Below are positions 20,176 through 54,243 of a stretch of DNA of 64,000 nucleotides, in pieces. Within the stretch, counting starts at the first letter, position 1. Each line of letters begins with the position of its first letter. The notes below the pieces were generated by a model. The model worked only from the letters and a program-made list of their open reading frames with translations. It ran no database searches and was not told the origin of the DNA. The stretch is from Escherichia phage moskry. The stretch is taken from sequence record MN850651.1; one strand, given 5' to 3'. Position numbers and translations under genes: made by a program.

Positions 20176-20238
20176 GATATTTTACTCATTTTAAGACGAT
20201 AGGAAGATAATAACATGTCTTCCTATCGTTGTACATTA

Positions 20239-22878: not shown

Positions 22879-24692
22879 TGGTGTTTAACCCTATGCATGA
22901 TTTCTTTATTTTTGCCTAGATTAAATCCGCGTTCGTTCGGGTTTCCAAGATAACCGCATGTTCTTCTTATAGTGTTCATCTTTTTAGGATCAGTTTCTCC
23001 GCAAACTGAACAAACAAATCCATTTTCGGTAGGAGTCATTTCATGAGTACTTCCACATGTAAAACATTTATCTACTGGCATATTAACACCAAAATAATCT
23101 AAATGTTGTGCAGCATAATCCCAGACAGCCTCAAGTCCCTTTAAATTGTTTTTCATATCTGGAAGTTCAACATAAGAAATGTGACCACCTGTCGCAATGA
23201 AATGATATGGCGCTTCACGAGAAATCTTTTCAAACGGAGTAATATTTTCTTCTACTGAAACATGGAAACTATTAGTGTACCAGCCTTTATCAGTGACATC
23301 CTTTACACTTCCATATTTTTCTGTATCAAGTTTACAGAAGCGATAACAAAGGTTTTCAGCAGGAGTGGAATATAAACTAAAAGCAAATCCGGTTCTTTCA
23401 GTCCACTGTTTAAGATGAGCATTCATTTTAGTTAAAATTTCTTGTCCAATATCACGACCGACAAGAATATTCAATTCGTGAATACCAATGTATCCTAGGG
23501 ACACTGAACTTCTACCGTTTTTAAATAACTCAATTATATCGTCATCAGGTTTAAGACGAACCCCGAATGCACCTTCTTGGTAAAGAATAGGAGCAACAGT
23601 CGCTTTAACTCCTTTTAAGGAACTAATTCTACACATCAAAGCTTCAAAACACAGGTCCATTCGTTCATTGAACAATTCGGCAAATTTCTGTTCATTGAAT
23701 TGTGTTCCAATATAAGAATCTAACGCAATACGAGGAAGATTCAGTGTTACAACGCCAAGATTATTGCGTCCATCAAGAATTTCATTGCCAGTTGAATCTT
23801 TCCATACGCTCAAGAAACTACGGCAGCCCATTGGAGAAACAGGAACTGAAGAACCGGTAATAGCTTTATTATTCTTAACCGAAATAATATCAGGATACAT
23901 TCTTTTGCTTGCGCACTCTAGAGCAAGCTGCTTAATATCATAGTTCGGATCATCTTTATAAAGATTAACACCTTCTTCAACAAACATAACAAGCTTAGGG
24001 AAAATAGGAGTTATTCCATCACGACCAAGACCTTTAATGCGGTTTTTAAGAATTGCTTTCTGAATCATTCGTTCAGTCCAGTCGGTTCCTGTACCAAATG
24101 TAATTGTTACAAAAGGAGTCTGTCCGTTTGAACTAAAGAGAGTATTTACTTCATATTCATAAGCTTGGAATGCATCGTATACGTCTTTTTCTGTTTTAGA
24201 TTGAGCATAATTCAACGCATCAGCGATTTGCCATTTTTCTGCATCTTCAACATGTTTAGCGTATGTGCGTTTAACATAAGGAGAAAGAACTTTATCGACA
24301 TTCGCAAATGTAGTTCCGCCATATTGGTGTGAAGCAACTTGTGCGGTAATTTGTGCCATAATTGCAGTAGCAACGCCAATAGATTTAGGCGTTTCAATTT
24401 GAGCATTGCCTAATTTAAATCCATTCTCAAGCATCCCCTTTAAATCGACTAAACAGCAATTGGTAAACGGAAGAGCAGGAGAATAATCAATATCATGCAT
24501 GTGAATGATTCCGCTTTCATGCGCATGCATAATAAAAGACGGGACCATATTTTTGGCAATGTGCTTAGACACAATACCAGCCATAAGGTCCCGTTGAGTT
24601 GGAAAAACACGAGAATCTTTATTAGCATTCTCGTTCAAAAGATCTTTATTAGTTTTATAAATTAATCCTTCAATTTCTTTTTCAATTTTCAT
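22875..24692 (-). CDS. nrdD: Anaerobic ribonucleoside-triphosphate reductase (glycyl radical enzyme), intron-less
   Basis: 605 aa continuous ORF; C-terminal CxxC Zn site and RRTCGYLG glycyl radical motif. Confidence 0.95.
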   Translation of the reverse strand: MKIEKEIEGLIYKTNKDLLNENANKDSRVFPTQRDLMAGIVSKHIAKNMVPSFIMHAHESGIIHMHDIDYSPALPFTNCCLVDLKGMLENGFKLGNAQIETPKSIGVATAIMAQITAQVASHQYGGTTFANVDKVLSPYVKRTYAKHVEDAEKWQIADALNYAQSKTEKDVYDAFQAYEYEVNTLFSSNGQTPFVTITFGTGTDWTERMIQKAILKNRIKGLGRDGITPIFPKLVMFVEEGVNLYKDDPNYDIKQLALECASKRMYPDIISVKNNKAITGSSVPVSPMGCRSFLSVWKDSTGNEILDGRNNLGVVTLNLPRIALDSYIGTQFNEQKFAELFNERMDLCFEALMCRISSLKGVKATVAPILYQEGAFGVRLKPDDDIIELFKNGRSSVSLGYIGIHELNILVGRDIGQEILTKMNAHLKQWTERTGFAFSLYSTPAENLCYRFCKLDTEKYGSVKDVTDKGWYTNSFHVSVEENITPFEKISREAPYHFIATGGHISYVELPDMKNNLKGLEAVWDYAAQHLDYFGVNMPVDKCFTCGSTHEMTPTENGFVCSVCGETDPKKMNTIRRTCGYLGNPNERGFNLGKNKEIMHRVKHQ

Positions 24693-26312: not shown

Positions 26313-26572
26313 TTAAAATATTCCCGCAGTTGATCAAATCCACCAATGTGACTTCCGTCAGGAGCAAACACTTGAGGCATAGTCAATCCAACTTGTGATT
26401 TACGTCCAAGCTTAACCAGAAGCTCAGCAATTTTTTCTTCATCGAATACACCTTTTTCTGGCATAACATTAATGAATTCAAATGGCTGTTTCTTAACAGT
26501 CAGCAATCGTTTAGCATTATCACAATAAATGCATTTATGAATAGTAGAGTCATACCCGTACACTTTAAACAT
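26309..26572 (-). CDS. nrdC: Glutaredoxin (T4 thioredoxin) NrdC
   Basis: MFKVYGYDSTIHKCIYCDNAKRLLTVKKQPFEFINVMPEKG... matches T4 NrdC; start at internal ATG. Confidence 0.92.
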   Translation of the reverse strand: MFKVYGYDSTIHKCIYCDNAKRLLTVKKQPFEFINVMPEKGVFDEEKIAELLVKLGRKSQVGLTMPQVFAPDGSHIGGFDQLREYFK

Positions 26573-26978
26573 TATTTTTCCTTTCATCGATTAAATATGC
26601 AACGCCAAATACAATACATGTAATAAAACCTGTGATACAGATAGAAACCAACAACACTGTACCAAAGAACCAAATCAGGTTATCTTTAGTAGTTTGTTTG
26701 ATATCCATCTCACGAATTTCTATAGCTATCGTATCACCTTTATTCAGAAGCGTATAAAACGAAGGTGATACACGCCTGTCAAAAACTCGTCCTTGTTCAT
26801 CTTTATAAACTGCAATAAATTCTAATTTAGAATATTTTCCTGTAGATTGTCCTGAGATTAATTCCACTACCTCCACAGGAATTACTTTAGTTTCCATGTA
26901 AGTATTCTGGCTGTTCCAAATGAATGGAATGATGGCAAAAACTAAAGCTGCGATAAAACAACGAAGGCTATATCTCAT
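26565..26978 (-). CDS. Membrane protein (two TM segments)
   Basis: 137 aa ORF, hydrophobic N- and C-terminal segments. Confidence 0.5.
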   Translation of the reverse strand: MRYSLRCFIAALVFAIIPFIWNSQNTYMETKVIPVEVVELISGQSTGKYSKLEFIAVYKDEQGRVFDRRVSPSFYTLLNKGDTIAIEIREMDIKQTTKDNLIWFFGTVLLVSICITGFITCIVFGVAYLIDERKNNV

Positions 26979-27283
26979 TATAATGTTCTCTCAAATTTGT
27001 GGAAGCATTTACGGCATTTCAATTTCAAGTTATCAGTGGTCCAGTTAACCAGTTGGACTTGGATAGTTCCACATTCCGGGCATGGATGTTTTGCTGCCGA
27101 TTTGGCAGCATTTTCACGTCGTTCAACCATTTTCATTATTTCGTTCCATGCCGGAGGAACGAACTCTTCTTCACCGTGGATTTTATCTCGCTGAACAAAT
27201 TCGATCTTTGAACTATCGTCAATAAACTTAACCAAGCCATGATTAGTGCTCATATCAATATCCTCTAAAAGACGTAGTTTCAT
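26978..27283 (-). CDS. Zinc-ribbon protein
   Basis: 101 aa; CPEC...CRKC. Confidence 0.5.
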   Translation of the reverse strand: MKLRLLEDIDMSTNHGLVKFIDDSSKIEFVQRDKIHGEEEFVPPAWNEIMKMVERRENAAKSAAKHPCPECGTIQVQLVNWTTDNLKLKCRKCFHKFERTL

Positions 27284-28233
27284 TATAACACCTCAATGGC
27301 ATTTCGTAAACCATCCGCTTTCGCATTCAGAGCTTTTAACGATTTAGTTTGTTCTGCAATCTGGGCTTCGACTTCTTTCAGACGAGATTTGAGATATTCG
27401 CGTTCTTCTCTTAAGTTATCAACTTTTTCTGCTTTAGGCTCTTTAATAGGCTTAGGCTTATACTCGTTAGGGTTCTTCAACTTAATTTGAATGCGAGAAC
27501 TGTATAACATTGAACCATTATCTTCGGTTTCATCATACATTTCTACCACGTCCATGATTCTTAACATCATGCGAAGTTTATAAGACAGCGAACGAACGGT
27601 TTTGTTGCGCTTATTAATTTCTTCGGCTTTCATGGTACCGAGATTACGTGAGTAGTAATAAGGAACCTGGATATCAATTGATAATGATGCGTTACCATTA
27701 CCGGTTGGTTTGAATACTGCAGTAACCCAATCTTTAACATGAACTTTATTTGTACGATCATCGCCGCCTGTGAATAATTTACGAGAATGTTTAAAAAGCA
27801 TATTCACTTGGTTATTGAATTCACAAGCAAATTTATCAGCAAATTTAGTTTCAGGAATGGTAGATAACCAATCAGCCAAATGAGTCTTTTTAACATCATT
27901 AACAATAGTGAATTCAACCAAATCGGTTTTAGATGTCACAGATTTAATAAAGCTCGGCTTCATAAAGTTTTTAATGTTATCGCGAGCTACAGTAGAAGAT
28001 AATAAACGAGAACGTTTGAACCATTGAAGCAACGTCCCTAACGAATGAGAATACGCATTTTGAGTATCTTTACAGATATGATTTTCTTGGCCTATGTATG
28101 TACCAAAATCGCGAAGAATACCACTTACTACATCTCGGTGTGGAACATCAAATCCTAGTGCACCAGAAGCACGTTGGGCATGAACGTTAGCGATAAGACC
28201 TGCAAAGTATTCAATGTAATGTGAACGTGTCAT
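27283..28233 (-). CDS. Hypothetical protein with C-terminal coiled coil
   Basis: 316 aa; own upstream early promoter cassette at 28261-28291. Confidence 0.55.
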   Translation of the reverse strand: MTRSHYIEYFAGLIANVHAQRASGALGFDVPHRDVVSGILRDFGTYIGQENHICKDTQNAYSHSLGTLLQWFKRSRLLSSTVARDNIKNFMKPSFIKSVTSKTDLVEFTIVNDVKKTHLADWLSTIPETKFADKFACEFNNQVNMLFKHSRKLFTGGDDRTNKVHVKDWVTAVFKPTGNGNASLSIDIQVPYYYSRNLGTMKAEEINKRNKTVRSLSYKLRMMLRIMDVVEMYDETEDNGSMLYSSRIQIKLKNPNEYKPKPIKEPKAEKVDNLREEREYLKSRLKEVEAQIAEQTKSLKALNAKADGLRNAIEVL

Positions 28234-28260
28234 AATATTTTCCTCTCATTAAGATAGATT

Positions 28261-28291
28261 CATTATACTCCAACCATCCTTGGTTGTAAAC
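28261..28291 (-). promoter_or_regulatory. Early sigma70-type promoter with internal dyad (PeSL-like cassette)
   Basis: Minus strand GTTTACA-aCCAACCAtccTTGGTTGgag-TATAAT; near-identical copy at 29281-29311. Confidence 0.6.
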
Positions 28292-28295
28292 TATT

Positions 28296-29255
28296 TTATG
28301 ATTTTAATGCATTCATTGCGTTAAAAAGTTTAGAATACTGCAACTGGAGATTCGTTACAACACTTTGAGCATCACGAAGTTTAGCTTGTGCTTTGTCAAG
28401 TTCAACAGACAGTTGGTCCATAGTGGCCTTGATTTGATTATAATGGTAATCTTCGGCCGGAAGAAGGTCATTAGAAACATTTAGTTTTACTGCAGACAGT
28501 TTGCACACATTTGGCAAACCTTTAAACATTGATTTACCCGAAGTAGAATAAGCACTTAGGACTTCGGCCTGTTCAATTGGGGTCCCAGTAAGCGATGCTT
28601 CAAACGTTGCATTTTCCTTTTTAAGATTTTGATAATATTCGGAGTCTTTGTGCCACCATGGCGCAGGAACCTTTTTACCAATAGATACACGAGCCTGGAT
28701 AGCGATATGGCCCTTATTCTTGATAGGGTTGATAATATTAAGCTCACGAGAATAAATTGCTTTAATCTGGTGAATATTATCACCTAAAACTTCCAACGCT
28801 TGGTGGAATACACGAGCAACGTTATCATTCTTAGGTTTATACGTAAGAGTGAACTCATTCTCACTGATAACCATGATTTCCAACTTATCGTAAGTATATT
28901 TCAAATGTTTCATGTTAATTGCTTGAGGATGAATACGAGAAGCAATGGCCATCAGATTGTTAAGGTTATTCCGGAACTGCTTAGCGAAATATTGTCCTTC
29001 ACCGCCAATACAAAAATTACGAAGTTTCTGTTTGGCTAATAAACGGCTGAACTCACCATTTTTAATGAACTCTTTAACGGGTGTGTTAGTAACGCATTCA
29101 AATTGAGTAAACTTACGAGAAGTAATCCCATAATATGAACAGACTTCCTCAATCTCTTCAGGAGTCTTTACAGGCATACGGATAGGATTAGGTCCTGGAG
29201 TATATGCGTTCGAGGTAAATTCTTTGATAAGTTCTTTACGTGTAATAAAAGCCAT
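28296..29255 (-). CDS. Hypothetical protein with C-terminal coiled coil
   Basis: 319 aa. Confidence 0.55.
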   Translation of the reverse strand: MAFITRKELIKEFTSNAYTPGPNPIRMPVKTPEEIEEVCSYYGITSRKFTQFECVTNTPVKEFIKNGEFSRLLAKQKLRNFCIGGEGQYFAKQFRNNLNNLMAIASRIHPQAINMKHLKYTYDKLEIMVISENEFTLTYKPKNDNVARVFHQALEVLGDNIHQIKAIYSRELNIINPIKNKGHIAIQARVSIGKKVPAPWWHKDSEYYQNLKKENATFEASLTGTPIEQAEVLSAYSTSGKSMFKGLPNVCKLSAVKLNVSNDLLPAEDYHYNQIKATMDQLSVELDKAQAKLRDAQSVVTNLQLQYSKLFNAMNALKS

Positions 29256-29280
29256 TTTATATTCCTCATGTTGAAAAATT

Positions 29281-29311
29281 TATTATACTCCAACCATCCT
29301 TGGTTGTACAT
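29281..29311 (-). promoter_or_regulatory. Early promoter / PeSL-like cassette (repeat copy)
   Basis: tattatactccaaccatccttggttgtaca repeats the 28261 element. Confidence 0.55.
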
Positions 29312-30306
29312 CATTCCTTAAGAAGTTTTACTACTTGAATAAGATTAGCTCGTTCTGTTTTATTTTTACCATTTAAGCCTGCTAATCGTGAGATTTCATC
29401 GTCAGTCTGTTGAATAGTTACATTAAGTTCGTTAATCAAAGCTTCAAAGTATTTGATTTGCTCAGCATGTTTTGATTCAAATTTCTGAACAGGAATAACG
29501 TCTTGGTTCAGTTCATCAATAAGGTCTTTAAGAGCATCTTCTTGGTTGATATCATATTCAACTTCTTTTATTTCTTCAACGAGCTCGTCTTTATATCTAA
29601 CGTCTTTTAGTCCTGGTGCTGGTCCTGAAATCTCTTCTTTAAGAGTACAAACATATCCAATACGGTATCCAATGCCGTCTCGCTTGATATCAACTTCGTC
29701 GATAAATCCACAATGTTTAAGACCAGAGCCGATTAGGTCAAAATATCCTTGACGTCGTCCTTCAAACGTTACACGAACTACTAAGACAGTTTTACCTGCA
29801 ACCTTTTGAAGCTCACATTTATAAAAGTCAGTTGAACCTGAATAACTTGGATGAGTTTTAAAGTTCATCTGACGATCTAGGCCCATTTGTAAGCGTGCTG
29901 TTACGGCCATAAAACGTGTTTGGTTCTCGTTAAGATGAGCAACAATCCATTTCAAAGGCATTTTACACTGTTCACGACCGAACAAATCAGTACGTCCTAG
30001 ATTACGCAGGATGTTGTTAGAGTTAATCATCGACAGAACGTTAAGTTTATTCAGCGCGCTGAAGATTCCATCAGCCATTGATTTTCCATAACCTTTACAC
30101 GCTTTAATAAGTGCTCGCGGCAGATTAGTATAGATTTCAGACGGCATATGAAAATCAAATTTACTAACCAGTAATTGATGAACTTGGATAGCAATTTGTT
30201 CATAATTAAGTGCTCTGCGATCGTTATGGTCTTTAAACCACACTTTAATCTGTGAAGCACATAAACCGTTAATTTCATGTTTTACCGCATCAGATGTAAT
30301 GCTCAT
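29311..30306 (-). CDS. Hypothetical protein with C-terminal coiled coil
   Basis: 331 aa. Confidence 0.55.
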   Translation of the reverse strand: MSITSDAVKHEINGLCASQIKVWFKDHNDRRALNYEQIAIQVHQLLVSKFDFHMPSEIYTNLPRALIKACKGYGKSMADGIFSALNKLNVLSMINSNNILRNLGRTDLFGREQCKMPLKWIVAHLNENQTRFMAVTARLQMGLDRQMNFKTHPSYSGSTDFYKCELQKVAGKTVLVVRVTFEGRRQGYFDLIGSGLKHCGFIDEVDIKRDGIGYRIGYVCTLKEEISGPAPGLKDVRYKDELVEEIKEVEYDINQEDALKDLIDELNQDVIPVQKFESKHAEQIKYFEALINELNVTIQQTDDEISRLAGLNGKNKTERANLIQVVKLLKE

Positions 30307-30368
30307 AACTATTTCCTCAGATTGAATTGGAACTCAAAACCATTATAACCCGTCCTTGGGTAAAGCGT

Positions 30369-30893
30369 TTATGCGTGAACCGTCTTTAAACGTTCTTCAA
30401 ATTTCCGAAGAAGTGCTTGGCGTTCTGCTCGTTGTTCCGTATAAGTTTTAATACGACCTGAAGTGAGGGCGTATTGTTCGTTTACCGATTCCTTCATAAA
30501 ATCAGGAATCTCACGACAAGCTTTTATTTCGTCGAACTTGTCAATAACTGCTTGTTGTTCTGCAATCAGATTGTTGTAGTATTCGATATCCGATTTAATG
30601 TTTTGGATATCAGACTCAGTAGGCATGTTACGTGCTTTACGTTTTGCCTGATACTCTGCGTTTGTAGCACGACTCCAGTGAAGAGTACGTTTTTTGTTAG
30701 TGTTTTTATAGACTTCCAAAATCCCAACTGAATCGATGATAACAATCCAGTTCCAACGGCTTTTGTAAATCTCTCCTCCAGAAACGGTAATCTCGTTACC
30801 GCATGCTACTTCATTAAAGAACTTGCTTTGTGCTTCAGATTTAAATTTACCGTCGTTATAATTTACCAGGTTGAAAATATCTTTAGCGTTCAT
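30369..30893 (-). CDS. Hypothetical protein
   Basis: 174 aa. Confidence 0.5.
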   Translation of the reverse strand: MNAKDIFNLVNYNDGKFKSEAQSKFFNEVACGNEITVSGGEIYKSRWNWIVIIDSVGILEVYKNTNKKRTLHWSRATNAEYQAKRKARNMPTESDIQNIKSDIEYYNNLIAEQQAVIDKFDEIKACREIPDFMKESVNEQYALTSGRIKTYTEQRAERQALLRKFEERLKTVHA

Positions 30894-30951
30894 GTTTTAC
30901 CTCCAGTAGTTGATAGGTCTATAATAACATAACTATAGACCTTGTAAACAA

Positions 30952-31377: not shown

Positions 31378-32379
31378 TTATTTCAGTAAAGTTACTTCAG
31401 AGATTTCCTCCCAACCATCTTTATCAGTTGAAATAAAATCTGCTACATAAAGAGCCGTACGTAATGATACATTGCGAAGACGAGATACGTTAGCCTTCAT
31501 CCAGGACAATGCTTTATACGTTTCTGCATCAGTCAGACCACGTTTCTGCATCATGTCAGTAGATAATATTACATCTTCAACTCGAACCATAATCTCTTCA
31601 TTAGAGTGTACTCCAAGGTCGAGATACACTGAACGAGATACTAAAGCTTGAAGGTGTGGAGCAAGTTTCGAACCGCGTTCTAACTCTTTATCGATATCAA
31701 CGTTTGTAATGAAAACGATAGTACCTTCAAACTCAAATTCTTTATCAATACCCTTATCATCGAGATAAGATGACGCAGTGCTCCAACAAACTTTGCGTTT
31801 ATCTCCGGTATCTAATGCTGCTTTAAGAAGATTCAAGATGTCCATATCTGAGAATACGTCAACGTCATCGATTAAGAGAACGCTGTCTGCATCACGGTTG
31901 AGCCAAAGTTGTTCGTAAAGGCCAATACCAGAGATTTTACCATTAATGCTTTTGTATTTGATGAAACCATTATCATTAGCATTATTAAGTGCTTTATCCA
32001 GAGAATACGTCTTACCAATACCGGCTGCACCTGAAATAATGAGTGAACGAATTTTGCCATCGATAATGCCATTCGTCATCATGTTCATTACTTTAAAGCG
32101 TTTGTTGATACGAGTTTTCATATCTTCAGTGCTTTCAACAACTGCAACTGGTGATGTCTCAACTCTTTCCATTACGATGTCTGATTTGAAGACCCATACT
32201 CCACGTTCAGAACCATCAATCATAACGAAAATTTTACCGTCACCTAAGTGGGAACATTCAGGATTAAGCTTTGCTGGGAACCAGGTCTTTGTGGCAACAT
32301 AAGAACCAGAGATTTCGTTATTACGATAGATACCTTTTTTGATTTGAACGTTGAACATTTTATTCTCCAATTTACTCAT
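31378..32379 (-). CDS. AAA+ / P-loop ATPase domain protein
   Basis: 333 aa; Walker A ISGAAGIGKTYS, Walker B LLIDDVD. Confidence 0.6.
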   Translation of the reverse strand: MSKLENKMFNVQIKKGIYRNNEISGSYVATKTWFPAKLNPECSHLGDGKIFVMIDGSERGVWVFKSDIVMERVETSPVAVVESTEDMKTRINKRFKVMNMMTNGIIDGKIRSLIISGAAGIGKTYSLDKALNNANDNGFIKYKSINGKISGIGLYEQLWLNRDADSVLLIDDVDVFSDMDILNLLKAALDTGDKRKVCWSTASSYLDDKGIDKEFEFEGTIVFITNVDIDKELERGSKLAPHLQALVSRSVYLDLGVHSNEEIMVRVEDVILSTDMMQKRGLTDAETYKALSWMKANVSRLRNVSLRTALYVADFISTDKDGWEEISEVTLLK

Positions 32380-38151: not shown

Positions 38152-38690
38152 TCTTTTATTTCCAGTAGTTTATTTGATTTAAGGTAATTAGCCTTTTCTA
38201 GGACTTCAGAAGCATATTTACTTCCAGCACTCGTCTTCCATCCCGCATTATATGAGGATATAGCTTTTCTTATATCCCCGTTATGTATATTTAACCAATA
38301 AGAAAATTCTATATAAGCCCATCTGGCTGAATTAGACCGCTTAGATAGCATTTTCTTAATTTGGGCATCAGTCATATTGTAACCAAGCTGGTTAATTCTT
38401 GCCCTCATTGTTGGTAGATAATTTTGGAACATTCCATACGCATGGTGACCTTTCTTATCTTTAAGATTAATACCGGCAGATGATTCTTGCCATAGTATTG
38501 CGGCCATTATGTATCCAAGTCCTTTCTTATGCATATTTTCATGCGTTTTAAATTTTCCATCCTTAGAAAACTGTTCCCCAAACTGATAAGCATAATTCAA
38601 GTTATCGAGTTGGACATTACTAAAAGTATGCTCGGAGCTATGTGCTGATAATGAAAGAGCAAATAGACCAGCGAGTAGTGCTTTTCTCAT
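38148..38690 (-). CDS. Periplasmic lytic-transglycosylase-like protein
   Basis: 180 aa; signal peptide; ILWQESSAG...YGMFQ motif typical of SLT domains. Confidence 0.55.
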   Translation of the reverse strand: MRKALLAGLFALSLSAHSSEHTFSNVQLDNLNYAYQFGEQFSKDGKFKTHENMHKKGLGYIMAAILWQESSAGINLKDKKGHHAYGMFQNYLPTMRARINQLGYNMTDAQIKKMLSKRSNSARWAYIEFSYWLNIHNGDIRKAISSYNAGWKTSAGSKYASEVLEKANYLKSNKLLEIKE

Positions 38691-39157: not shown

Positions 39158-39217
39158 TTTGATTTCTCCTCTAGTTGACAGGTCTATAGTAACACAACTA
39201 GAGGAGATGTAAACTGC

Positions 39218-42702: not shown

Positions 42703-42760
42703 AATTTCCTCCAAGTAGTTGATGAATGTATAGTATCAAAACCCTTGGAGGAAGTAAACA

Positions 42761-50151: not shown

Positions 50152-50430
50152 TTTGTTTTCCTCTTGATTTGATAGGACTACTATAACATAAACTTACTTA
50201 GATGTAAATTATTTCAACGTCACCTTTAGCTGCTTTATAACCTTCAGCCCAAGATACAACAGAGTTTTTATCTGAGGATTCAAATTCAGGCATTGGACTT
50301 TCACCAATATTCACACAGTATGTTTCTTCATTTTCATCGAACCAAATAATTAAAGTAGTCATTTTGTTTACTCCTCTGTAGTTGTTAAGTCTATAGTATC
50401 ACCATCCTTGGTGATTGTACATCATTATTT

Positions 50431-54166: not shown

Positions 54167-54243
54167 TTTATTTCCTTGAGGTCGTTTATTTGATAGGATG
54201 ATAGTAACACACCATCATCCTTATGTAAACTGTTTTGTGAAAA

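Follow-up and report, generated by a model that had tools for sequence, protein, structure and literature searches.

Three tandem genes in the nrdC region of Escherichia phage moskry (sequence record MN850651.1), w316, w319 and w331, very probably form an array of dispensable early genes, in which a regulatory cassette of the promoter early stem-loop (PeSL) type before each gene acts as a recombination joint. The window analysed was a stretch of 64,000 nucleotides (nt) of this phage, in which all genes of the nrdC region lie on the minus strand; its positions 27000-30900 are 95–98% identical to many Escherichia phages of the genus Mosigvirus (T4-like, Straboviridae). The T4 counterpart of the three-gene slot is nrdC.3, nrdC.4, nrdC.5 and nrdC.6, and the locus is the Mosigvirus version of the T4 nrdC.3–nrdC.6 array. 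The three open reading frames (ORFs) of 316, 319 and 331 amino acids (aa) lying head to tail, as reported in the initial annotation, were all present, and they alternate with the cassettes as follows.

27283..28233, minus strand: w316, 316 aa, orthologue of T4 nrdC.3, PHROG 1435
28234..28295, minus strand: cassette 1 (PeSL-type), the entire 62-nt space from the w319 stop codon to the w316 ATG
28290->28262, minus strand: promoter of cassette 1, TTTACA-17-TATAAT, 11/12 to the sigma-70 consensus, followed by leader and Shine-Dalgarno sequence
28271..28286, minus strand: hairpin of cassette 1, CAACC-AAGGAT-GGTTG in the spacer, followed by GGAGTATAAT; predicted RNA fold -6.9 kcal/mol
28296..29255, minus strand: w319, 319 aa, nrdC.5 family, Pfam DUF7235 (PF23882)
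29256..29310, minus strand: cassette 2 (PeSL-type), an entire 55-nt space, abutting the w331 stop codon at 29311-29313
29310->29282, minus strand: promoter of cassette 2, TGTACA-17-TATAAT, 10/12 to consensus
29291-29306, minus strand: hairpin of cassette 2, CAACC-AAGGAT-GGTTG
29311..30306, minus strand: w331, 331 aa, nrdC.6 family, PHROG 2257
30342..30367, minus strand: cassette 3, a diverged copy preceding w331, with hairpin ACCC-AAGGAC-GGGT (30348-30361) and -10 box TATAAT (30342-30347)

The spaces of 62 and 55 nt between the stop codon of one gene and the Shine-Dalgarno sequence and ATG of the next consist entirely of cassette. Cassette 1, upstream of w316, has the layout TAA-aata-GTTTACA-ACCAAGGATGGTTGGAG-TATAAT-...GAGAGG...ATG, and cassette 2, upstream of w319, has the layout TGA-TGTACA-ACCAAGGATGGTTGGAG-TATAAT-...GAGG...ATG. 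Each is predicted to contain an intergenic early promoter of the sigma-70 type with a spacer of about 17 bp, and a promoter is annotated at the position equivalent to cassette 1 in phage NBG1. The 26-nt core of the cassettes, ACAACCAAGGATGGTTGGAGTATAAT, comprises the promoter spacer with the hairpin CAACC-AAGGAT-GGTTG plus the -10 box; it is identical at 26 of 26 positions between cassettes 1 and 2 and occurs exactly twice in the 64 kb (0 expected from 100 shuffles). No third copy with up to 3 mismatches was found in the window, and a repeat search extended the cassette repeat to 51 nt at 82% identity (repeat family D3). Near-identical GTTTACA-N17-TATAAT cassettes with an internal CCAACCA/TGGTTG dyad had been noted upstream of the first two genes. 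The dyad proved to be this hairpin, and the core, spacer and -10 box are indeed identical, but the second -35 box is (A)TGTACA; w316 and w319 are the first two genes in plus-strand coordinate order and the last two in transcription order. At the site of cassette 2, no promoter is present at the same junction in T4, where the junction is 9 nt long, or in Dhakavirus-type loci, and cassette 2 is a Mosigvirus-specific copy.

Cassette 3 has a MotA-box-like CGCTTTA 13 nt upstream of its -10 box. A MotA box is (a/t)(a/t)(a/t)TGCTTtA located 12±1 bp upstream of a good -10 box (Hinton 2010); the window has aaaCGCTTTA-13-TATAAT and T4 has CCGCTTTA-12-TATAAT. Judged by this match, cassette 3 looks like a middle promoter rather than an early one. 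Another promoter match (TTTACG-17-TATAAT with TG; 27282-27310, minus strand) lies inside the last w316 codons and directly precedes the start of the nrdC.2 homologue, which overlaps w316 (TAATG); T4 lacks the -10 box at this position.

A query built from the 3' end of w331, one cassette and the 5' end of w316 was searched against 50,697 phage records. This predicted junction was found in 20 records, each time as one uninterrupted piece covering 100% of the query at 96.4–99.4% identity, and w319-type genes were present in 132 phage records. In AV110, the one w319-less record in which the breakpoint was verified, the flanks align to window positions 32198-29258 and 28288-26309, and the two alignments share 53 nt. 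These 53 nt are a single chimeric cassette, whose -35 box (TGTACA) comes from cassette 2 and whose w316 leader comes from cassette 1. In this phage w319 is absent from the locus, the chimeric cassette replaces w319 and one cassette copy (1,020 bp), and no crossover was found outside the repeated core. T4 recombines at repeats of only 6–10 bp (Srikant 2022, PMC9391042). These junctions show that the recombinant exists in nature and that homologous recombination between cassettes would remove w319 as a precise module.

The neighbourhood from nrdC to nrdC.10 was compared in 14 loci of three T-even groups (Tequatro-, Mosig- and Dhakaviruses). Here F3, F4, F5 and F6 denote the protein families of nrdC.3 (w316), nrdC.4, nrdC.5 (w319) and nrdC.6 (w331), and slashes denote cassette junctions. 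The gene order is.8 /.7.6.5 /.4 /.3 in T4,.8 / F6 / F5 / F3 in Mosigvirus, with the nrdC.7 homologue moved beside nrdC, and.8 / F6 ... F5 / F4 in Dhakavirus. The differences in gene content and order among the three genera fall exactly at cassette junctions. The cassette in front of the nrdC.4-type gene of Dhakavirus is nearly the same as that in front of the nrdC.3-type gene of the window, the two being distinguished by one compensatory pair. In a 98%-identical genome the same core of about 30 nt also occurs at a distance of 43 kb, in the dexA-motB region, where the copies separate tandem MotB-like paralogues. The shuffling of cassettes with cargo genes after nrdC, suggested in the initial annotation, was therefore borne out by the dispersed repeat, the junction-specific order changes, the recombinant in 20 records and the AV110 chimera; the opposite case that it had named, unrelated core genes with no cassette variation, is not what the related phages contain.

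The relocated T4 nrdC.7 homologue (26565-26978, minus strand) is a predicted membrane protein with 41% identity that adjoins nrdC. It occupies the position of T4 nrdC.1, and T4 nrdC.7 lies between nrdC.8 and nrdC.6, indicating a relocation between genera.

The hairpin of the cassettes belongs to a wider family. One more hairpin-promoter was found elsewhere in the window, and the stems at the compared sites are listed below it.

50393..50421, minus strand: TGTACA, hairpin ATCACC-AAGGAT-GGTGAT (50398-50415; RNA fold -9.3 kcal/mol, z -2.3), TACTAT
Stem CAACC/GGTTG: window, twice
Stem CATCC/GGATG: Dhakavirus, upstream of the nrdC.4-type gene
Stem TGCCAC/GTGGTA: T4, upstream of nrdC.4
Stem AGCC/GGCT: T4, upstream of nrdC.3
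Stem TACC/GGTA: T4 and Dhakavirus, downstream of nrdC.8
Stem ACCC/GGGT: window, upstream of w331
Stem ATCACC/GGTGAT: window, 50398-50415

The AAGGAY loop is constant across several junctions and three genera, and the stem varies by site. The TACC/GGTA stem occupies the site orthologous to cassette 3 and differs from it by compensatory changes. Across 12 distinct sites, 85.7% of cells were paired, compared with 63% in shuffles (0/500) and 25–52% in slid registers; both sides had changed in 5/7 pairs, and the covariation score was 0.56 versus 0.14. The stem-loop of cassettes 1 and 2, which fills the promoter spacer, has accordingly kept its pairing through two-sided changes. The window contains 4 stem-AAGGAY-stem hairpins (0.37 expected; maximum 2 in 300 simulations), each of which lies on the transcribed strand and directly adjoins a -10 box, and of the 5 AAGGAY motifs located a spacer length from a -10 box, 4 have stems. 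The complete genome of NRG-P0074 (98% identical) contains 7 hairpin copies on the early strand and 0 on the other (about 1 expected). These copies are concentrated in hyperplastic regions: besides the nrdC cluster and the dexA-motB region, they occur before an alc-like gene and before one hypothetical gene, and the 50–100 kb block, in which structural genes predominate, contains none. Further stems of other sequences emerged from a pattern scan of IMG/VR, some of them flanked by TTGACA and TATAAT boxes; stems of at least 5 bp were present in 12/99 unique contexts versus 2.4 in permuted controls. An Rfam scan of 26–33 kb matched no family.

Two other kinds of hairpin were observed on the minus strand. 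AAGGAT-loop hairpins with 6–8-bp stems occur at 38551-38572 and 24659-24676 (AGTTTTCT/GGAAAATT, and AAATTG/TAATTT with a G-T pair); no -10 box follows them, both are conserved in T4-type loci, and they could be chance or coding-region structures. A second class of promoter dyad, at 20207-20235, 30921-30948, 39186-39213, 42730-42758 and 54201-54229, has its 5' arm in the spacer and its 3' arm just past the -10 box (AGGTCTATA...TATAGACCT at 30948; CGATAGGAAGA...TCTTCCTATCG at 20235), and in two of these the 3' arm extends to the Shine-Dalgarno sequence (CTCCTCTAGTTG...CAACTAGAGGAG at 39213; CCTCCAAG...CTTGGAGG at 42758). Such a dyad would sequester the ribosome-binding site in read-through RNA and leave it free in the promoter's own transcript. 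This class matches the 'overlapping -10' PeSL subclass.

The cargo genes vary far more than their surroundings: array genes from nrdC.3 to nrdC.6 are 24–56% identical between genera, compared with 73–91% for flanking genes. w316 is homologous to T4 nrdC.3 over its full length (56% identity, E 3e-121), matches PHROG 1435 (E 3e-105) and has a weak match to nrdC.4 (E 5e-5). An exhaustive search of 1.84 billion proteins found its relatives in only 4 representative clusters, indicating that the family is confined to T-even-type phages. w319 matches DUF7235 (PF23882) over its full length (E 6e-123, 410.7 bits against a gathering cut-off of 30), as do T4 nrdC.5 (E 5e-126, 420.6 bits, also full length) and the Dhakavirus nrdC.5-type protein (E 3e-121). 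Compared directly, w319 and T4 nrdC.5 are 24% identical over 336 aa (E 1e-10), and a homologue search with w319 recovered close relatives only, without T4-type nrdC.5 proteins even when a profile was used. w331 is 29% identical to T4 nrdC.6 (E 1e-18) and matches PHROG 2257; PF26899 is carried by close w331 homologues, one of them 99% identical to w331. The three proteins fall into three separate PHROGs with no assigned function, and NCBIfam, PADLOC and PDB sequence searches with them returned nothing informative.

Pairwise BLASTP detected no similarity among w316, w319 and w331. Profile-profile comparison related the nrdC.3 to the nrdC.4 family (97.6% probability, E 4e-12, 208 columns) and the merged nrdC.3/.4 profile to the nrdC.5 family (74%, E 3e-5, 211 columns); the latter alignment covers the N-terminal and central part, the coiled coil not being included. 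The nrdC.6 family gave 2–7% against the others, which is not significant (7%, E 0.005 against merged F3–F5). The motifs TR-x-E-[YL]-I-x-x-F, SRLL...NF and F-x-x-N-x-x-x-L-x-x-x-A-x-R-[IL] are common to nrdC.3/.4 and nrdC.5, and the nrdC.6 family has collinear versions of the second and third. The AlphaFold2 models of w331 (predicted local distance difference test, pLDDT, 71.5) and w319 (poor, pLDDT 46.9) have the same order of elements: a helical N-domain, beta-beta-alpha-beta-beta, a disordered linker and a C-terminal helix of about 50 residues. A BFVD fold search with w331 retrieved uncharacterised proteins of about 300–335 aa from distant T4-type phages of Acinetobacter, Aeromonas, Klebsiella and Pectobacterium (E 1e-7 to 1e-3). 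The search with w319, which gives only a hint owing to its poor model, had two targets in common with it, and no solved structure resembling the globular part was found by the fold search. The C-terminal segments are as follows.

27286-27399, minus strand: w316 C-terminal heptad region, aa 279-316, heptad score above shuffles
28302-28457, minus strand: w319 C-terminal helix, aa 267-318, from the AlphaFold2 model and heptads
29317-29466, minus strand: w331 C-terminal helix, aa 281-330

Heptad periodicity exceeded that of shuffled controls at the C-termini of w316 (279-316) and w319 (269-319) and was borderline in w331, and within the nrdC.5 and nrdC.6 families no segment is better conserved than the C-terminal helix. 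The initial annotation had ascribed a C-terminal coiled coil to each protein. All three proteins may share a helical N-domain, a beta-beta-alpha-beta-beta domain, a disordered linker and a C-terminal coiled coil, the last probably serving for oligomerisation or partner binding. By these comparisons, the nrdC.3, nrdC.4 and nrdC.5 families, and with them w316 and w319, are probably distant paralogues; the link to nrdC.6 is only suggested, and w331 is possibly a paralogue as well.

Several peculiarities of the array genes were noted in the course of these comparisons. In the T4 reference (NC_000866, 8067-8894), nrdC.6 has 275 aa and diverges and ends before the conserved C-terminal helix, which is present in the 295-aa nrdC.6 of the other T4-type phages compared (L008, L009, L010 and L014); the short form looks like the result of a frameshift, either in the reference strain itself or in its sequence. 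In the T4-type contig L008 (9948-11000), nrdC.4 is split into ORFs of 193 and 158 aa and is apparently a frameshifted pseudogene, again pointing to the dispensability of the nrdC array. Many deposited genomes, including NRG-P0074, annotate the whole nrdC.1–nrdC.10 series as 'thioredoxin'; none of these proteins matches a thioredoxin family, and the labels appear to be carried over from the nrdC gene names. In the nrdC.10 homologue of the window (31378-32379, minus strand), a protein of 333 aa with 77% identity to T4, there is an AAA/STAND-like NTPase core with a Walker-A motif, together with a weak helix-turn-helix match at the C-terminus. In T4, a deletion from tk to nrdC.2 abolishes the phage-induced destabilisation of host mRNA, and the gene responsible is unidentified (Uzan and Miller review).

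The function of the cargo may lie in counter-defence. Pin inhibits Lon, and gp49.2, which adjoins nrdC, inhibits OLD. In T4, the early and nonessential gene nrdC.5 makes cells with the Dsr1 sirtuin defence susceptible to infection again (Srikant, Guegler, Laub 2022, eLife 11:e79549, PMC9391042). Like T4 nrdC.5, w319 lies in the slot between nrdC.6-type and nrdC.4/.3-type genes and matches DUF7235 over its full length, and it resembles it in dispensability: laboratory deletions in T4 remove nrdC.5, and 20 natural records lack w319. By this analogy, w319 is probably a counter-defence gene. The high divergence, the tandem paralogy and the natural presence or absence of w319 also make the nrdC.3–.6 array genes putative accessory host-range or counter-defence factors. 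The functions of all three genes had been given as unknown, which is too pessimistic for w319, since the T4 member of its family counters Dsr1; for nrdC.3 and nrdC.6 the statement stands, no activity being known.

Taken together, we propose that the locus comprises early genes in tandem that evolve fast and are dispensable, and that before each of them a compact PeSL-type cassette takes up the intergenic space in the order stop codon, -35 box (or MotA box), 5-bp AAGGAY-loop hairpin in the spacer, -10 box, leader, Shine-Dalgarno sequence and ATG. Each cassette would supply its gene with its own promoter for host RNA polymerase. The hairpin would form in read-through RNA from the upstream gene and attenuate or end that RNA, as demonstrated for the stem-loops of the RB49 PeSLs. 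With its own promoter and an attenuating hairpin, a gene could be lost, gained or swapped without disturbing its neighbours. The cargo would be host-range or counter-defence factors, w319 belonging to the Pfam family of the anti-Dsr1 protein nrdC.5 and w316 (nrdC.3/.4 family) being a candidate distant paralogue of that family.

Several points weigh against this proposal. The promoter, terminator and hairpin activities of the cassettes are all deduced from sequence. The hairpins are weak (-6.9 to -9.3 kcal/mol), with a stability not greater than shuffled except at the 50415 site; they have no U-tract, and a terminator scan called no site at any cassette. An intrinsic (Rho-independent) terminator was accordingly rejected, the stems being followed by GAGUAUAAU or UAUAAU, and the cassette hairpin would be a weak terminator at best. 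The sites used for covariation were partly picked for having stems, the strand bias is not independent evidence of an RNA role because the hairpin lies inside an oriented promoter, and the conservation of the loop could result from common descent of the cassettes. The w331-cassette-w316 junction alone fits a deletion and an insertion of w319 equally. Not every exchange runs through a cassette: in the T4-type locus L009 (and also in L008), a Mosigvirus-like nrdC.3 segment (L009 11130-11930) is patched in, 88–97% identical to the window versus 42–78% to T4, which is mosaicism between genera. The breakpoints of this allele swap lie in the conserved gene ends, i.e., the regions encoding the N-terminal motif and the C-terminal coiled coil, and a swap via the cassette was rejected. 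As for the cargo, w319 is only 24–28% identical to T4 nrdC.5 across comparisons and anti-Dsr1 activity is known for T4 nrdC.5 only; the w319 model, of low confidence, is interpretable only for the C-terminal helix.

The hairpin might serve as a specific RNA signal, which we consider doubtful and which would be compatible with a role of PeSLs in recombination. In read-through RNA, the phage endoribonuclease RegB, acting with ribosomal protein S1, would cut the GGAG that comes right after the stem in the main cassette class (GGAGUAUAAUA/G) and leave the hairpin as a protective 3' end on the upstream message, or the AAGGA loop, which resembles a Shine-Dalgarno sequence, would bind 30S subunits or S1. 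The RegB/S1 target is a single-stranded GGAGRAYARAA in early intergenic regions, and the cassette RNA of the window agrees with it at 9–10/11 positions, with GGAGUAUAAAU upstream of T4 nrdC.3. The sequence after the stem in one cassette class, GGAGUAUAAU(A/G), is near this target, the invariant AAGGAY loop with covarying stems suits an RNA signal, the hairpins begin 4–11 nt past the upstream stop codon, and a regB-like endoribonuclease gene is annotated in a related genome. However, GGAG does not follow the stem in the second cassette class (downstream of nrdC.8 and, in T4, upstream of nrdC.4), and position 10 or 11 of the consensus is mismatched in the cassettes. GGAU and GGAC are rarely cut by RegB, the link to RegB being one of sequence resemblance, and the accessible part of Durand 2006 does not name the cassette sites among those cut by RegB. 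A broader form of this idea, which we hold to be speculative, is that the AAGGAY hairpin is a distinct T-even RNA element read by a specific factor (RegB/S1, 30S or a phage RNA-binding protein), coordinating a counter-defence superfamily of nrdC.3–.6 coiled-coil proteins while also acting as a portable recombination joint through which these genes can be exchanged between genera.

It is rather improbable that the cassettes are passive relics of an ancient tandem duplication of gene and promoter with no continuing role in rearrangement. The distant tandem paralogy of nrdC.3,.4 and.5 would agree with such an origin, as would the tandem MotB-like paralogues separated by other cassette copies. But the proteins have diverged beyond BLASTP similarity and the cassette cores are 26/26 identical, which requires recent copying or gene conversion. 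At the same junction, T4 and Dhakavirus lack the cassette that lies upstream of w319, and the recombinants without w319, with the crossover inside the core, refute the strong form of the idea. In a weaker form, duplication possibly seeded the cassettes.

We also regard it as very unlikely that the dyad is a double-stranded DNA operator, despite its classic operator position, centred in the promoter spacer, and its presence in several promoters. Operator half-sites would be expected to stay fixed; here they vary, with at least 7 stems (CAACC, CATCC, TGCCAC, AGCC, TACC, ACCC and ATCACC) that keep their complementarity, and it is the asymmetric centre AAGGAY that is invariant, the opposite of an operator pattern. 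One stem contains a G-T pair, a pairing that only a single strand can accommodate, and the operator was rejected. Finally, it is hardly credible that the cassettes are alike merely through a long T4-type early promoter consensus: such promoters do have a consensus extending beyond the hexamers (Hinton 2010, a review that does not mention the nrdC promoters), but the approximately 20 others on the minus strand of the window have unrelated spacers and leave the core identity unexplained, the identical 17-nt spacer is confined to cassettes 1 and 2 with no further match at 3 mismatches, and the stems covary.

The cassettes reveal no new kind of element. Their interest lies in the fact that sequenced phages contain the two parental cassettes, the cargo gene and also the exact chimera, making this a very clean natural case of module exchange of the PeSL type, and in tying a known mechanism of genome plasticity to the turnover of anti-defence genes through a cargo family with reported counter-defence activity. 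The region now has at least three inhibitors: Pin, gp49.2 (against OLD) and nrdC.5 (against Dsr1). w316, w319 and w331 are candidates for counter-defence screens, and Mosigviruses with and without w319 form a natural pair for host-range comparison.

The mechanism itself has already been published as PeSL-mediated modular shuffling. PeSLs consist of an intergenic early promoter of the sigma-70 type together with a stem-loop. T4-type phages have repeated copies of them in their hyperplastic regions, and they mediate insertion, deletion and replacement of the ORFs that they flank, with mini-circles in RB49 and phi1 (Arbiol 2010, PMC2839356; Comeau 2014, PMC4122927). The commonest layout has the stem-loop in the promoter spacer (Arbiol et al. 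2010, Genome Biol Evol 2:140, PMC2839356). Both in RB49/phi1 and in the window, a stop codon is followed by a sigma-70-type promoter with a stem-loop and then by a Shine-Dalgarno sequence and ATG, and the copies lie in hyperplastic regions, flank nonessential ORFs and mark indel breakpoints between relatives. The RB49 stems are runs of G and C and the promoters are of the TTGACA type, whereas the window has mixed-sequence stems of 4–7 bp, a constant AAGGAY loop and a T4-type (G)TTTAC -35 box. The window hairpins are also weak by comparison and without a U-tract, and promoter and terminator activity as well as mini-circles were demonstrated by experiment in RB49/phi1, whereas the window cassettes are known from sequence alone.

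Also close are the PeSLs and middle-promoter stem-loops (PmSLs) of T4/PST and KVP40/nt-1, phages of the same subfamily (Comeau, Arbiol, Krisch 2014, Genome Biol Evol 6:1611, PMC4122927). In that paper the T4-type promoter consensus is TTTACW-N17-TAYWAT, cassettes lie near hyperplastic indels and replacements, and the PmSLs resemble cassette 3. Its PST/T4 stems are often AGNA-loop-TCNT and are drawn just upstream of the promoter, whereas those of the window are inside the spacer; the accessible portion of the paper makes no mention of an AAGGAY spacer hairpin, of covariation across three genera or of the presence or absence of w319. The short-homology deletions of T4 (Srikant 2022) likewise remove nonessential genes between short direct repeats. 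They use 6–10 bp of fortuitous microhomology at varying sites, whereas the substrate in the window is a regulatory repeat of 26 nt (up to 51 nt); because this repeat would be a functional regulatory cassette, the recombinant keeps an intact promoter and leader. The window cassettes, which as read from their DNA have every feature by which PeSLs are recognised, are a clean new example of these elements and not a new kind. What is added here is the covarying AAGGAY hairpin in three genera, an exact natural recombinant and the paralogy of nrdC.3, nrdC.4 and nrdC.5.

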